A stretch of DNA of 64,000 nt, taken from the NCBI GenBank assembly GCA_002794035.1, contig PCXQ01000001.1:3256-67255 (forward strand). Direction: 5' to 3'. The number at the start of each line of letters is the position of its first letter. Position 1 is the stretch's first letter. A model generated the notes under the pieces. That model saw only the letters and a program-made list of their open reading frames with translations. It was not told where the DNA came from and did no database searches. Both the position numbers and the translations under genes were made by a program. Positions 16,795-61,885 of the stretch are shown piece after piece. The DNA comes from Candidatus Yanofskybacteria bacterium CG10_big_fil_rev_8_21_14_0_10_36_16. Lineage in GTDB: Bacteria; Patescibacteriota; Minisyncoccia; 2-02-FULL-40-12; IGHO2-01-FULL-4-A.

Positions 16795-17139
16795 TTAATA
16801 ACGGCCTATTGAGAATTCTTCTATATATTTCATTAAATAATCCGATGCTGTAATTTGTTTTGATCGAAGTTCTGGGCAAAATTCTTTTACTCTCCTATCT
16901 ATGTGTTCACATGTTGGTATTAATTTTTTAAGTTCTTCCTGAACTGAATAATTTTCATCGTCAGTACAAACATCGTCTATTCTTTCTTTCAAGTCAAAAT
17001 ATTCGAATACAACTTGCAGTTTTCTTTCCAAAACCCGAACTTCATTATACAAAAAGAATATTGCTAATATTCCGATTGCTATGATGATTCCGAGGCTCAT
17101 GATCACCTCCTTGTAGGTGTGCTTGTTTAAAATTAACAA
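16795..17139 (-). CDS. Hypothetical membrane-anchored protein
   Basis: 114 aa with one N-terminal TM helix. No motif recognised. Confidence 0.45.
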   Translation of the reverse strand: MLILNKHTYKEVIMSLGIIIAIGILAIFFLYNEVRVLERKLQVVFEYFDLKERIDDVCTDDENYSVQEELKKLIPTCEHIDRRVKEFCPELRSKQITASDYLMKYIEEFSIGRY

Positions 17140-20289: not shown

Positions 20290-20526
20290 TTAAGGTTGTT
20301 TTTGTCTTTTAAGTAGTTTTTTTTCTAATTCCTGCAGATCATCTAAGGCCAATTCTAATTGTGGGAGTTCAAATTTTCTACCGCATTTGTTGCATTTATA
20401 ACCGTCACTGATGCCCGGTCCCATAACAAAGTCAAGCGGATTACTTGGCGGGGGTTGCACAACAAACACTTCCCAGATGTCACCGCCGCATTTACACTTT
20501 CCCCCATATTCTGGTTTCCTTGCCAT
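20290..20526 (-). CDS. Small zinc-ribbon protein
   Basis: Start at the second Met (MARKPEYGG), with AGGAGGAGG 3 nt upstream. CKCG...CNKCG pairs. Confidence 0.55.
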   Translation of the reverse strand: MARKPEYGGKCKCGGDIWEVFVVQPPPSNPLDFVMGPGISDGYKCNKCGRKFELPQLELALDDLQELEKKLLKRQKQP

Positions 20527-43283: not shown

Positions 43284-43371
43284 GGGCCATAGTAAGATAA
43301 CTTTTACTTAAAGGGTATCACTTTTGTGCTGTTTTTTAAAGGTCTGAAAAAGAGCGTTGAGGGCGTTGACA

Positions 43372-43785
43372 CTAAACGAGAAATTGAGCGACAAACCAGA
43401 TGCCGGCAGTAATTAAAAACCATATCAACTGATTGGCTTCCCTAAAATCTCCGGAGCGGTAGTAGCGGCCAACTTGGGTTACGGTAAATATCGCGGCAGT
43501 CATCGGGATAAAGTTAAATGGAATATCAAATCTAAAGGACACGAGATAATATACGATTATTAAAGCTACCGCTTCGGAAAAACCCGAAAAGCGTGATTTT
43601 AAAATATCGCTATGTTTATCTAACAACCCTTTGAATGGGGCATAAATGAACATAGCAATAATTGGACTAATGGCTGCGATATAAAACAATGAGAATAAGG
43701 CCCATAAGAATGGCAAAAATATAAAAGAAGAAATAATAACTATACCCCATAGCAGTAAACTAATTTTTGATTTTATTACATCCAT
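43372..43785 (-). CDS. Small four-helix membrane protein, unknown function
   Basis: Start moved to MDVIKSKISLLLWG (137 aa). 88 nt upstream of mod on the same strand. Confidence 0.55.
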   Translation of the reverse strand: MDVIKSKISLLLWGIVIISSFIFLPFLWALFSLFYIAAISPIIAMFIYAPFKGLLDKHSDILKSRFSGFSEAVALIIVYYLVSFRFDIPFNFIPMTAAIFTVTQVGRYYRSGDFREANQLIWFLITAGIWFVAQFLV

Positions 43786-43810: not shown

Positions 43811-43897
43811 GATGGATTTCTCCACCTGTTACCCTTTCGGGTAACAACCACTGCTGGTGCTCCTAAACGACGGGTTTAGTACCCAGCAGTGGTTTTT
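43811..43897. promoter_or_regulatory. Cluster of GC-rich hairpins (candidate structured leader or small RNA)
   Basis: gatgga-tttc-tccacc, gttaccc-tttc-gggtaac (GAAA loops on the minus strand), and a 10-bp stem ccactgctgg/ccagcagtgg enclosing ctaaac-gacgg-gtttag, then TTTTT. Confidence 0.4.
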
Positions 43898-44012
43898 ACG
43901 TCATACCTCAAATGTTGACATTTTGAGGGTTAGGCAATTTTTAGTTGTTAGACCAATATTATCACAAAACCTTGAAAATCTCCATAATTTTCGTTTTACT
44001 TAAATTAATACT

Positions 44013-54464: not shown

Positions 54465-54763
54465 TAAAACAATAGTGGTGGGATTTTTGAGTCTACTAAA
54501 AATATTATAAGTCCGATTATCGCGCCAACGGCCGATATCAACACAAAAGTCGCGGGCCCCTCCCTCGCTGGCTAGGGATCCACTCCCGCTCCTTGAAACC
54601 TTGCGGTTTCAATACTTCCACTATGGGGAAACACCCAGTTTCCCCAGCCCCCCTTCTGATTTCGGATGATATCAGTTTTTTGTTGATTAAAACAATAGTG
54701 GTGGGATTTTTGAGTCTACTAAAAATATTATAAGTCCGATTATCGCGCCAACGGCCGATATCA
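54465..54763. repeat. 76-bp perfect direct repeat of the mraY 3' end flanking a 147-bp GC-rich insert
   Basis: Copies at 54465-54540 and 54688-54763. The insert (54541-54687) contains hairpins gaaacc-ttgc-ggtttc and ggggaaac-accca-gtttcccc. Confidence 0.85.
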
Positions 54764-55760
54764 TCCAAAATCTCATGGTGATTTGGGTTTCATGCCAGCC
54801 CTTGGCCTCGAAATGGTGGTGTATGGGAGTAGATAGGAAAATCTTTTTGCCTCGTAATTTTTTTGAGGTTATTTGAACTATCACAGATAAAGATTCACCA
54901 ACAAACACTAGGGCTATAATTGGTAAAAGCAAAGCGGTATTGGTTAGCATGGCAATAATACCCAGAACAACCCCCAAAGACATTGACCCCGTGTCGCCCA
55001 TAAAAAATTTGGCAGGATAAATATTGAACCACAAAAATGCTACAAGAGCTCCCATGATGGATGCTATAAACACAACGAGATCCATCCTTTCTTGAACAAA
55101 AGCTATTGCGCCATAAGCGGCAAACATGGTTAAGAAGGTTCCACCAGCAAGTCCATCAAGGCCATCAGTTTCATTTGCTGAAAATGCAGTCGCTACGATA
55201 ATAAATATAAAGAATGGAATGTACCACCACCCTATTGCCATGTCTCCTGCAAAAGGTATGTTTATTGAATTAAAGTCCAATTTAAAGAAGAACCACCATG
55301 CACCTCCTGTAGCAACAAGGAGGTAAAGACCTATTCTGTGGCGCATTTTAAGGCCTCCTCCGTTAGGTCCTATTCGAAATACTCCAAAAAGATCATCTGC
55401 CAACCCAAACATTGCAGCAACAAAAAGAGCGCCTAATGGCAACAGTGTCTGTGCACGAGATAGAAAATTCCAATCAGACCAAGTTCCGTTGTAAAGGCTG
55501 GCAAAAAAAGAAAAACCAAGAGTTACGATTATTACAGTTGCCCAAACTACTACCCCGCCCATAGTGGGTGTTCCTTCTTTTTTTTTGTGCAGTTTATTAA
55601 AAATGGGTGCCGAATCGCTTCCTTTTAATTGCTTGCCAAGATTGTTTTTTTGGATAACTTTATTCCATGCGGGTGTTAATATTATTGCAATAAAAAAAGA
55701 TAGTGTCGCCACCACGAAAACTCTGACAACGTTAAAAACAGTAAATGTTTCGCCTATCAA
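54687..55760 (-). CDS. mraY: Phospho-N-acetylmuramoyl-pentapeptide transferase
   Basis: 357 aa. Typical MraY motifs (NETDGLDGLA, GDTGSMSLG, PIHHHFE). Confidence 0.95.
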   Translation of the reverse strand: MIGETFTVFNVVRVFVVATLSFFIAIILTPAWNKVIQKNNLGKQLKGSDSAPIFNKLHKKKEGTPTMGGVVVWATVIIVTLGFSFFASLYNGTWSDWNFLSRAQTLLPLGALFVAAMFGLADDLFGVFRIGPNGGGLKMRHRIGLYLLVATGGAWWFFFKLDFNSINIPFAGDMAIGWWYIPFFIFIIVATAFSANETDGLDGLAGGTFLTMFAAYGAIAFVQERMDLVVFIASIMGALVAFLWFNIYPAKFFMGDTGSMSLGVVLGIIAMLTNTALLLPIIALVFVGESLSVIVQITSKKLRGKKIFLSTPIHHHFEAKGWHETQITMRFWMISAVGAIIGLIIFLVDSKIPPLLF

Positions 55761-58418: not shown

Positions 58419-58859
58419 TTAAATGAGGTTTAATAATTGTGTCGGGCTATCTTTTAAATACATGCCCCTTATCTCCTTCTTTATTTTGTCTCTTAATTGT
58501 TTGGGCAACTCATTTTTAAACTGGTTGATAATCTCGGGTGCACAAAATAGATATATTTCGTTTATGGCTCCTTTTTTGTCTACTTCTAATATATAGCTAG
58601 CTGCTTTTTTTATAAACTCTTTATGTATCTTTTCTTTTGGTATTTCGCGGGAAGAACCGCTTGAAATAATCCCAGCAGTTTTTGATCTAATTTCTGAAAA
58701 CCCTTCGTTATCTGAATATTTGGGAGTTATTACTTCTATCTTATTTACTTCCTCTATTAAACCATTCTCTGCTAAATAAAAAATGCCGCTTTGATTGCCG
58801 AAAACAGCTAATAGTGTTGGGTTATTTTTAAATTGTTGAAATTGTTTTGGAATTTGCAT
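58419..58859 (-). CDS. Hypothetical protein
   Basis: 146 aa. No confident motif. Confidence 0.45.
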   Translation of the reverse strand: MQIPKQFQQFKNNPTLLAVFGNQSGIFYLAENGLIEEVNKIEVITPKYSDNEGFSEIRSKTAGIISSGSSREIPKEKIHKEFIKKAASYILEVDKKGAINEIYLFCAPEIINQFKNELPKQLRDKIKKEIRGMYLKDSPTQLLNLI

Positions 58860-58880
58860 TATATAAATTTTAAATTAATT

Positions 58881-59246
58881 TTAAAAACTATAGTCTGGTG
58901 CTACTATTGGTGCGGGTGTAATTATGGGTTTTGGTGTGACGCTTTCATCTTTGAGGGGGTCTGTCCCTGCTTTTATTTCTTCCCCATCAAGAAATCCATC
59001 ACCATCGCTGTCAGGATTAAATGGGTCTGTATTATAATTAGATTCTTCAAAATCAGCAATGCCGTCAAAATCAGAATCTTTTGCTAGGGGGTTGTTGATA
59101 TTAGTCGTAGGGGTTTTGTTTAAGTTTAAATTGGTATTTGTGGCTTTATTGATTGTGTTATTGCTGGGTTTTTGTACTGCATCTGATACAAACAAAATAG
59201 CTACAAAAATGATCCCAGCCGATATTGTTATTAATATCCCCTTCAT
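58881..59246 (-). CDS. Secreted protein with thrombospondin type-3-like calcium-binding repeats
   Basis: 121 aa. Signal/TM helix, then DSDFDGIADFEE...DPFNPDSDGDGFLDGEE. Confidence 0.6.
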   Translation of the reverse strand: MKGILITISAGIIFVAILFVSDAVQKPSNNTINKATNTNLNLNKTPTTNINNPLAKDSDFDGIADFEESNYNTDPFNPDSDGDGFLDGEEIKAGTDPLKDESVTPKPIITPAPIVAPDYSF

Positions 59247-59330
59247 GTAATAAATATGCCAAAAATTAAGCTAAATTTCAAGTCACTCTAAATATTTATT
59301 ATGTTCTTATAACATTAAATTATGGTTAAG

Positions 59331-59364
59331 AAAAAGTAATGGCCCCGCACTTCTTGGTGCGGGG
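59331..59364 (-). terminator. Terminator of the GC-rich cassette
   Basis: ccccgcac-ttcttg-gtgcgggg, with a T-run on the minus strand. Confidence 0.65.
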
Positions 59365-59388
59365 CACGGGGTTGGAGGTTGGGGTCGC

Positions 59389-59619
59389 CTAGTGAAGGCG
59401 GCCGGCGTGAATGGGTTCAAACCGGATCGGATGAGCCCACAGAGATTCGATCGCGACGCTCCCAAGAGCTCGCGCCTCCTCGGACGAGATTGCCAGAAGC
59501 CCCAAGGGAACCTCCGGAAAAGACTGTTCCTCCTCCTCTGGAGTTCTTCGGCCTCGCCGTTTCTCGTTTCCCCTGACCTTGCGAGGCCAGGAGACATCAT
59601 CTCTCTGCATCTTCTGCAT
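59389..59619 (-). CDS. 76-aa ORF inside a ~60% GC island (unknown function; coding status uncertain)
   Basis: AGGAGG 7 nt upstream of the ATG. MQKMQRDDVSWPRKVRGNEKRRGRRTPEEEEQ...LAISSEEARALG... Three other ORFs overlap it because of the high GC. Confidence 0.4.
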   Translation of the reverse strand: MQKMQRDDVSWPRKVRGNEKRRGRRTPEEEEQSFPEVPLGLLAISSEEARALGSVAIESLWAHPIRFEPIHAGRLH

Positions 59620-59640
59620 GGGAAATCCTCCTACTATTTA

Positions 59641-59669
59641 AGTGTAGCATAATTAAAATGGCTTGTCAA
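59641..59669 (-). promoter_or_regulatory. Sigma-70-like promoter for the GC-rich cassette
   Basis: Minus strand reads TTGACA-17 nt-TACACT, about 20 nt upstream of the RBS. Confidence 0.5.
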
Positions 59670-59739
59670 ATATTAAAAAATGTGGTATTTTAAAATAATT
59701 AAAAAACCAGCCTCTTTTTAAAAAGCTGGTTTTTATCGA

Positions 59740-60108
59740 TTATTCCCATATATTTTCTAATTCTGCCAATATCTCATCAGGAATAGGTATTGCTTTGCCC
59801 ACAGGACTTATGCCGGGGTATCTCCATGCAGATATTATTGTTTTTTTATTTGTTAATGGTATTTCATTTTGTATTTTTCGTTTTAAATTTTTATTTTCCT
59901 GATACATTACCCAAATTTCCTGAGGAGTTTTGCTTGTAGCTTTTTGCATAACCGCCGTGGTCCCAGTCGCTACCCCCTCTTCAGTGCGATGAGGATGTCT
60001 TACCACTCTTTTTATTAAGCTTTCTGATATACCATAATAAACCATCTTGTCTTTAACATGGTTGGTCCACTTATATTTTTCGTTGTCTTTAGGTAATTTA
60101 AATTGCAT
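59740..60108 (-). CDS. Hypothetical protein, DUF4258-like (toxin-like) signature
   Basis: 122 aa. NHVKDKMVYYGISESLIKRVVRHP resembles the H-x3-RM-x2-RGI pattern of DUF4258. Confidence 0.4.
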   Translation of the reverse strand: MQFKLPKDNEKYKWTNHVKDKMVYYGISESLIKRVVRHPHRTEEGVATGTTAVMQKATSKTPQEIWVMYQENKNLKRKIQNEIPLTNKKTIISAWRYPGISPVGKAIPIPDEILAELENIWE

Positions 60109-60210
60109 GTTGTTGGGGTCTTTAATAGTAAATAGATAAATATAGATTAAATGATTTTGTTGTTTTCGTAAACTTAATAATTAAAAACCCCGCCTAGGCG
60201 GGGTTTTTGT

Positions 60211-60853: not shown

Positions 60854-61885
60854 TTAAGGAGTGAAATATATAATCTTTCCATTTTCATAAACATGAAGGT
60901 CATTGGTTTCCTCTGAAACGGTAAAGACCGTTGTGCCTTTAAAGACATAAGATGCGCTTATTGCAGATAGGTGTCGTGTGTGGACTTTGTGCTGGAAGCC
61001 GAATTGGTCAGATAAATCTTTGAATTTGCCCGGGCTTACTTTATTGGCGACTGTTCTGGGGCGCATACCTTCCACCATAACCCCGGAATGTAAAATGTCT
61101 CCGCGCTCATCTATCAATATAGCGCCATCAAAATTTATGGTGGTTTCAATGTCGTGCCCTTTTGTTTTTTTATGTCCGAGATCTAATATACTAATTTTAT
61201 TTTTATCAAAAATATCTTGTTCGCTATCGGATATGTCTGTGTAATTGTTCCATTTATTTTTCCACCCTAAAATAATAAACAGGCCGAAATTTTTCTTACG
61301 ATTCGTGAGATCTATTATAAAATCAATCAATTTCATTTTAAAGTCATAAGGAAGTTTGGTTTTTGACTCTTTTAATGTTTTTGAACTTTCTGATAATTTT
61401 TTTACGGTTTGTGTTTTGATTGGGTTTTTTTTGCTACTGCCCATTATTTTGCCGTATCTATCAAGGAGCCATGAGCTTGATTGTATTTTACCGCCTGCTC
61501 CGGCATTGAATACCATTTTGCATCCTATCTCATTGCATACTTGGACTTCTGGGATGTTGTTTTTAAATCGGTCTCCCCCATTTACAAATATATCAGGCTT
61601 AATTGTTGCAAGCTCACTACACACACTCATGTCTTTAGGATTTTTTTTGTGCTTTGATAGGACAACCTCATCTACGCAGTTTATCGCTTCTATCATTTCG
61701 CGTCTTTCATTTTGGGGCATAAAAACAAAGCCCTTCTTTTTTTTGAGCCAGTTATCGTTATTTAAAATAACAACAAGCTTGTCGCCGAGTTTTTTTGCTG
61801 ATCGGAATAACCTTACGTGACCTATGTGTAGAGGGTCAAAACCCCCGCTGACTGTTACTACTTTTTTATTGCTTGATTTTTTCAT
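60854..61885 (-). CDS. Fusion: cytidylyl/adenylyltransferase (HIGH-type) domain + diadenylate-cyclase-like (DAC/DisA_N) domain
   Basis: 343 aa. N-terminal SGGFDPLHIGHVRLF. C-terminal FDGAILIDERGDILHSG and HTRHLSAISAS...FTVSEETNDLHVYENGK match DAC motifs (DGA; RHR changed to RHL). Confidence 0.7.
   Translation of the reverse strand: MKKSSNKKVVTVSGGFDPLHIGHVRLFRSAKKLGDKLVVILNNDNWLKKKKGFVFMPQNERREMIEAINCVDEVVLSKHKKNPKDMSVCSELATIKPDIFVNGGDRFKNNIPEVQVCNEIGCKMVFNAGAGGKIQSSSWLLDRYGKIMGSSKKNPIKTQTVKKLSESSKTLKESKTKLPYDFKMKLIDFIIDLTNRKKNFGLFIILGWKNKWNNYTDISDSEQDIFDKNKISILDLGHKKTKGHDIETTINFDGAILIDERGDILHSGVMVEGMRPRTVANKVSPGKFKDLSDQFGFQHKVHTRHLSAISASYVFKGTTVFTVSEETNDLHVYENGKIIYFTP

Follow-up and report, generated by a model that had tools for sequence, protein, structure and literature searches.

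The locus considered here raises the question of how a short stretch of DNA with deviant composition and its own apparent expression signals should be read: as a gene for a small protein, as a gene for an RNA, or as inert foreign DNA. It lies on the minus strand of the window (the whole stretch of 64,000 nucleotides that was analysed), in a genome assigned by its name in a protein database to Candidatus Yanofskybacteria (CG10_big_fil_rev), within the Candidate Phyla Radiation (CPR). An initial annotation had offered a choice between a recently acquired small gene, possibly a toxin, an antitoxin or an HTH-like regulator, and a structured RNA gene whose GC content mimics an open reading frame (ORF). 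That dichotomy still stands, whereas its toxin-antitoxin and HTH specifics could not be upheld. The reading that we tentatively prefer, short of regarding it as probable, is that of a lineage-specific, stand-alone small RNA, non-coding or at most bifunctional.

The compositional contrast is pronounced. A 250-bp stretch from 59341 reaches 63.2% GC, approximately 6 sd above the window mean of 36.1% (sd 4.4%), and the island is the sole place within the 64 kb where a stretch of this length exceeds 50% GC. The predicted transcript (59331-59634, minus strand, 304 nt) has 59% GC, against 18% in the 66 nt upstream of it, 20% in the 84 nt downstream and 35-38% in four neighbouring genes that were checked, which bears out the GC-rich island described initially. 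Its first 200 nt are G-rich and its last 100 nt C-rich. Other GC peaks of the window include RNA elements, namely a tRNA-Leu (56%) and a LOOT RNA (approximately 47-55%), a circumstance in favour of an RNA product; the 59-63% GC of the island is nevertheless above that of the known RNAs in the window, which counts against it. Long GC-rich intergenic regions in AT-rich genomes have been reported to be enriched for structured RNAs (PMC6429828). The LOOT RNA (RF03000) is itself a full-length element at 43811-43936 (minus strand; score 86 bits, gathering threshold 46), located directly upstream of an ORF at 43371-43785 on the same strand.

The same 490 bp were found, identical, in five contigs from independent assemblies of different runs produced by the JGI, ENA and Logan pipelines. 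Besides the CG10 'big_fil_rev' samples, the accessions concerned were JGI 3300004209, 3300004210 and 3300025850, ENA ERZ27293400 and ERZ27293414, and SRR6240789. About 600 bp from the island, one SNP and one indel set two of these five contigs apart from the window. Since independent contigs are identical over the island yet differ nearby, a chimeric join, which the initial annotation had wished to see checked, is excluded, and the SNP and the indel indicate that the island is present in more than one strain. The island is a real, sharply bounded orphan unit with its own predicted promoter and terminator and a foreign-looking composition.

All of its signals lie on the minus strand. A -35 hexamer TTGACA (59664..59669) is followed, after a spacer of 17 nt, by the extended -10 element TGcTACACT (59641..59649); a promoter scan recovered the pair with 10 of 12 matches, in agreement with the TTGACA-17-TACACT promoter already proposed, and transcription is predicted to start near 59634. 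The AGGAGG at 59627..59632, located 7 nt ahead of an ATG (59619), may be read either as a Shine-Dalgarno site or as the first member of a set of four copies of this motif. From the ATG to a TAG at 59391-59389 runs the 76-codon ORF (59389..59619), listed by NCBI as hypothetical protein COV29_00320; motif, spacing and ORF are as initially described. Two further, overlapping AGGAGG copies (59529..59537) read GAG GAG GAG in the ORF frame, and a fourth is found at 59475..59480. A C-rich tail of 21 nt, CCCCAACCUCCAACCCC (59366..59386), leads from the stop codon to the terminator and contains a CCUCC (59378-59374) which folding predictions designate as the partner of a GGAGG. The 3' end is terminator-like, with a GC-rich hairpin of 9 bp, GCCCCGCAC/GTGCGGGGC, followed by CAUUACUUUUU (59342..59365). 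The hairpin of the terminator claimed initially is present at 59365-59342, but as an intrinsic terminator it is borderline, owing to a U-run that begins 6 nt beyond the stem.

We infer transcription of the island from these matches of promoter and terminator to their consensus. The GC boundaries coincide with both signals, the GC-rich block starting 2 nt past the predicted transcription start and ending with the terminator stem, and a block delimited in this manner suggests selection on the transcript rather than an arbitrary foreign fragment. Composition, the agreement between its boundaries and the transcript ends, and uniqueness of the sequence all favour an RNA product.

Uniqueness was evaluated among relatives. 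Even the nearest ones in databases are remote, identity being 68-70% at most for aspartyl-tRNA synthetase (AspRS) and for the 122-aa protein encoded next to the island. Eighty AspRS-anchored loci from GTDB species and seven loci anchored on the 122-aa gene were scanned by blastn, nhmmer and GC-peak scans. None of the 87 contained a homologue of the island, and the sole GC peak, in locus L018, was a tRNA. The AspRS-peptidase S11 pair was conserved in 37 of the 80 AspRS-anchored loci and the 122-aa gene kept its upstream context in all seven of its own, while the island and the two genes that follow it, encoding a TSP3-repeat protein and a baeRF/Host_attach-like protein, were absent from these loci; neither of the two genes was found near AspRS or the 122-aa gene in relatives. 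As these three elements are missing between conserved blocks, the island sits where synteny breaks, in a segment of approximately 1.3 kb that is specific to the lineage.

Such a position, together with the unique sequence, would suit an inert remnant of foreign GC-rich DNA stranded at a synteny breakpoint, of which the promoter, the AGGAGG and the hairpin would be fortuitous features, and a second GC-rich block 5 kb away, enclosed by 83-nt direct repeats, indicates that such insertions do occur here. We nevertheless consider this explanation unlikely. Chance is unlikely to have placed a perfect -35 hexamer, an extended -10 at a spacing of 17 nt and a terminator hairpin together at the very edges of the block, a streamlined genome is expected to lose inert DNA, flanking repeats and insertion scars are lacking, and the open frames match no known protein, so that no gene fragment is recognisable. 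A mobile element (a MITE, or an insertion with target duplication) was considered as well and rejected, as the island has no flanking repeats and no second copy: terminal inverted and flanking direct repeats were short and at chance level, and no other copy was found within the window.

The second block is non-coding and extends from 54548 to 54687, with 54% GC, a peak of 61%, three hairpins and folding z-scores of -2.1 (minus strand) and -2.6 (plus strand). The repeats on both sides (54465-54547 and 54688-54770, 96% identical) are duplicates of the 3'-terminal part of mraY (minus strand, 54687-55760), and the block looks like an insertion that regenerated this gene end. It gave no Rfam match and has no similarity to the island.

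The upstream neighbour, a 122-aa gene at 59740-60108 (minus strand), had been qualified initially as a DUF4258-like gene of toxin type. Its match to DUF4258 is sub-threshold (E = 0.07, 13.8 bits for a cut-off of 25), and none of 28 members of its family had a Pfam match, DUF4258 included, so that only the toxin part of this claim retains some basis: the best PDB match of its AlphaFold2 model (pLDDT 75) was the BrnT ribonuclease toxin, with a probability of 0.95 but an E-value of 0.07. A RelE/BrnT-like fold is possible according to this model; it says nothing about the island. The family itself is widely conserved in Parcubacteria-group bacteria (686 matches), and certain of its His, Lys, Arg and Glu residues are invariant.

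Could the island encode the antitoxin or partner of this neighbour? Besides the structural match to BrnT, the gene order would be suitable, since in BrnT/BrnA systems the toxin gene comes first. A terminator of the 122-aa gene (59702..59734, minus strand) separates that gene from the island, and between 59734-59702 and the ORF the island promoter (59669-59641) intervenes as well, which argues against co-transcription. Pairing is not conserved either: in the seven relative loci fetched, genes for PPIase, PD-(D/E)XK or other unrelated proteins lie downstream of the 122-aa gene, never an island-like element, for a family of 686 members. Moreover, DUF4258 is matched by none of the 28 members, and the 76-aa ORF is devoid of RHH, HTH or AbrB domains according to Pfam, NCBIfam and an AlphaFold2 model with a single helix. 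The intervening terminator and promoter and the lack of a conserved partner rule out a toxin-antitoxin pair to the point that we regard it as close to refuted, and the toxin/antitoxin proposal of the initial annotation falls with it.

A few features of the upstream region deserve mention in their own right. In two of the arrangements seen among relatives (loci L089, L093 and L094), the 122-aa gene overlaps an upstream NUDIX hydrolase gene. The terminators of the 122-aa and dCMP deaminase genes have a 20-nt sequence in common, AATAATTAAAAA[A/C]CC.GCCT, at 59694-59713 and 60176-60195 (90% identical); both are palindromes made of an A-tract, a hairpin and a T-tract, and could terminate either way. 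Further upstream, a 343-aa protein (60854-61885, minus strand) has an N-terminal cytidylyltransferase-like domain, and its C-terminal region gave a weak match to DisA/DAC diadenylate cyclases (E = 6.5e-6, just below the cut-off).

On the downstream side, the TSP3-repeat gene (121 aa) and the Host_attach/baeRF family 12-like gene (146 aa) occupy 58419-59246 on the minus strand and AspRS follows. The 121-aa protein is secreted-looking and carries bacterial TSP3 calcium-binding repeats. The island shares its orientation with these three genes, one of which encodes an aminoacyl-tRNA synthetase, and the weak U-tract of its hairpin might permit read-through; it could accordingly be conceived as a riboswitch-like leader or attenuator acting in cis on the TSP3-baeRF-AspRS genes. 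No T-box or riboswitch match was obtained on the island even at E <= 10, and no such leader was seen upstream of AspRS in the 80 relatives. A promoter-like TTGAAA-17-CATATT (59253..59281, minus strand), similar in layout to the island promoter, ends 6 nt ahead of the TSP3 gene ATG (59246), which suggests that this gene has its own leaderless start, and AspRS is likewise preceded by a TAAAAT 7 nt ahead of its ATG. The promoter-like site of the TSP3 gene and the missing riboswitch and T-box matches weaken the leader model, which we hold to be highly improbable.

Leaderless starts are in line with the remainder of the window. Among its 48 ORFs of at least 120 codons, none had GGAGG or AGGAG upstream and 43 lacked any SD-like 4-mer, while a TANNNT box ended 4-9 nt ahead of the ATG in 16 of the 48, compared with 13.5% of all ATGs. 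This excess suggests that many mRNAs, and possibly a widespread class of them in this host, are leaderless.

Against this background, the island has much of the appearance of a protein gene. AGGAGG, 7 nt, ATG, 76 codons, stop, 23 nt and terminator follow one another, i.e. a translation start signal and a closed ORF that fit the predicted transcript. In 20,000 dinucleotide shuffles, the combination of an SD-like 5-mer, a gap of 4-10 nt and an ATG opening a closed ORF of 60 codons or more had a frequency of only 0.4%, and of 0.2% when the start lay in the first 40 nt. Strong AGGAGG Shine-Dalgarno sites also precede a few small native ORFs of the window (20290-20526 and 16795-17100), so that the island AGGAGG could work in this host. 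GC contents at the three codon positions (0.66/0.47/0.64) are lowest at position 2, which is coding-like. The layout, the use of Shine-Dalgarno sites in the host and the codon-position pattern count against an RNA product. They argue, together with the calls of the ORF in JGI and NCBI annotations and a predicted helix at residues 46-62 (AlphaFold2 pLDDT approximately 70-76), for an orphan gene that encodes a small protein, came recently from an unsampled GC-rich donor and is expressed from a host-type promoter. This alternative is a serious one, though on balance we find it rather doubtful.

Codon usage is the first reason for doubt. The codon adaptation index of the ORF is 0.477, compared with 0.726 +/- 0.029 for 48 host genes (minimum 0.661), i.e. 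8.6 sd low; the two native small ORFs with strong AGGAGG sites have values of 0.73 and 0.76 at 31-42% GC. Arginine and lysine amount to 13% and 4% of the predicted product, the reverse of the host (4% and 9%). Codon use and composition are not those of a native protein-coding gene, and a protein reading therefore requires a recent acquisition from an unsampled donor. A foreign fragment would moreover be expected to have arbitrary ends, whereas the GC block ends exactly where the predicted transcript does.

The open frame itself is of little help. Four overlapping ORFs are indeed present, as initially reported (two on the minus strand, of 97 and 76 aa, and two on the plus strand, of 65 and 86 aa), but they weigh little, given that stop-free runs of at least 65 codons occur in five of the six frames and that 6% of dinucleotide shuffles contain an ATG-initiated ORF of 76 codons or more. 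The total stop count is near the shuffle expectation; open frames are the rule for such a composition and the one in question is uninformative.

Gene calling was patchy. The 76-codon ORF was called in one of five assemblies checked (JGI 3300004210), on identical DNA, and is listed by NCBI, but ENA and Logan gene calls leave it out; by comparison, the 78-aa zinc-ribbon ORF at 20290-20526, preceded by a strong AGGAGG, was called in three of three assemblies (JGI, Logan, ENA). Furthermore, the AGGAGG ahead of the ATG was mostly paired in the folding prediction (P unpaired 0.16), as was the start region, its predicted partner being a nearby CUCC or the 3' CCUCC (P unpaired of CCUCC 0.0), and the Shine-Dalgarno site may thus be sequestered. 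The low codon adaptation index, the five open frames, the patchy calls and the paired start region favour an RNA. A separate JGI 'gene' was noticed on the contig of locus L006 (677-997, equivalent to window positions 59256-59576, plus strand), 321 nt long with a recorded product of 11 residues. Its interpretation as a tmRNA tag was rejected, since the translation passes three stop codons, and the call is a gene-calling artefact.

The predicted product, of which ALGSVAIESLWAHPIR is one peptide, is rich in charged residues; its N-terminal half is disordered, basic at first and then acidic, and a single helix lies towards the C-terminus. AlphaFold2, run on the single sequence, returned that one helix (residues 46-62) with an overall pLDDT of 66 and a pTM of 0.18. 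No match to it was found among Pfam, NCBIfam, PADLOC and PDB sequences; with one helix and none of these matches, the HTH-like motif proposed initially is not sustained. Protein searches had approximately 15 billion predicted proteins in scope. A word-indexed search of 5.8 billion clusters and an exhaustive phmmer search among 1.84 billion representatives returned only the ORF itself, so that no frame-conserving homologues, as would accompany a protein-coding gene, are available, and the other three ORFs of the island, concatenated as one query, had no homologue either. At the DNA level, blastn of the island found nothing in phages and one 35-nt chance match in plasmids; viral contigs yielded nothing, either in four k-mer scans or in a peptide-pattern scan. 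Genomes and metagenomes were covered by one k-mer scan each, and the 19-mer scan of metagenome contigs yielded a single chance match (L095). The similarity searches recommended by the initial annotation thus ended without protein or DNA homologues. That the ORF has no homologue, domain, fold or structure match, in so large a protein scope and in viral contigs, weakens the orphan protein and favours an RNA.

Known RNAs were not recovered either. Rfam 15, searched over the whole window at the gathering threshold, gave no match on the island, and at E <= 10 whatever matched was short, fortuitous and confined to the terminator hairpin; the families covered included RNase P, tmRNA, 6S, SRP, T-box, riboswitches and RsaE. 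ARAGORN detected no tmRNA in the window or in the four other island copies, and inspection of the island by eye revealed none of the conserved motifs of RNase P (P4), tmRNA (T-arm) and SRP (helix-8). The identification of a known RNA, which the initial annotation had regarded as fatal to its own proposal, did not result. By sequence comparison, the island belongs to none of the known RNA or protein families searched.

Folding predictions were moderately informative at best. With the terminator included, z-scores were -3.1 for the minus strand and -2.1 for the plus strand, and without it -1.6 and -0.6, with 13 of 200 shuffles folding as well as the minus strand. The RNA of the minus strand is thereby predicted to fold weakly better than chance, and better than that of the plus strand, which favours an RNA. 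A z-score of -1.6 without the terminator, which does not differ significantly from shuffles, the missing Rfam match, the lack of a second sequence and a GC content above that of known RNAs count against it. Every available island sequence is identical.

The preferred small RNA would be produced as follows. A host-type sigma-70 promoter would drive a GC-rich transcript of approximately 300 nt with a hairpin at its end, the RNA itself would be the product, and the 76-codon ORF would be mainly a by-product of the GC-rich composition. AGGAGG occurs four times in the G-rich 5' two-thirds of the transcript, and pairing is predicted between these copies and the CCUCC-bearing, C-rich tail before the terminator. 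Regulatory sRNAs that act by base pairing through a C-rich seed region typically have such a layout, which may be taken as a structural hint. The four copies of AGGAGG compare with 0.30 expected and were reached in none of 500 shuffles, an excess that fits an RNA and a protein equally, because the three internal copies represent in-frame GAG-GAG (Glu-Glu) codons. GGA is not enriched (9, against 9.5 in shuffles), and a sponge RNA of the CsrB/RsmZ type was rejected on the grounds that only the longer AGGAGG is in excess. CCCC is not enriched overall in the island compared with shuffles, and no target complementary to the C-rich tail was found in the 64 kb window.

A more specific proposal would be a regulatory RNA acting on translation initiation, in which the AGGAGG copies and the CCUCC tail mimic Shine-Dalgarno and anti-Shine-Dalgarno sequences and could titrate the 3' end of 16S rRNA or the few SD-bearing mRNAs. 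If true, this would take place in a bacterium whose genes mostly lack Shine-Dalgarno sites and appear leaderless; we consider it quite improbable.

Should the product be an RNA, the island would provide a first instance, limited to one lineage, of an unclassified sRNA in a CPR bacterium; to our knowledge, few regulatory RNAs have been described in these organisms. Should it encode a protein, it would be one more orphan micro-protein of foreign composition. One nearly clonal population without relatives does not lend itself to generalisation at present. As to annotation, some caution is advisable, since the sole basis of the COV29_00320 call is an open frame where five of six frames are open.

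Several known systems provide terms of comparison. In AT-rich genomes, annotation often mistakes RNase P RNA, tmRNA, 6S RNA and SRP RNA for hypothetical ORFs, and the island resembles these housekeeping RNAs in size, in GC excess, in having a predicted promoter and a predicted terminator of its own and in showing spurious ORFs in several of its frames; it differs from them in having neither an Rfam match at E <= 10 nor a tmRNA detected by ARAGORN. RsaE/RoxS of Firmicutes are base-pairing sRNAs with C-rich seed regions. The island shares with them an independent transcription, here a predicted one, and C-rich motifs (CCCC, CCUCC) just upstream of and inside the terminator, complementary to GGAGG-type sequences, but the island is approximately three times longer and lacks an Rfam match, an enrichment in CCCC and a target in the window. 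RNAIII/hld and SgrS/SgrT are bifunctional sRNAs that also encode a small protein. The island is similar to them in its predicted transcript of a few hundred nt and its short ORF behind a Shine-Dalgarno sequence, and differs in the absence of homology and in the putative character of both functions here. The closest counterparts may be sought among the GC-rich intergenic regions described by Stav et al. in 2019 (PMC6429828), many of which have no homologues and have stayed 'unnamed', as no consensus model can be built without homologues. Like them, the island is long, GC-rich, located in an AT-rich genome and without homologues; unlike them, it also has a clear promoter, a hairpin resembling a terminator and a plausible site for the start of translation.
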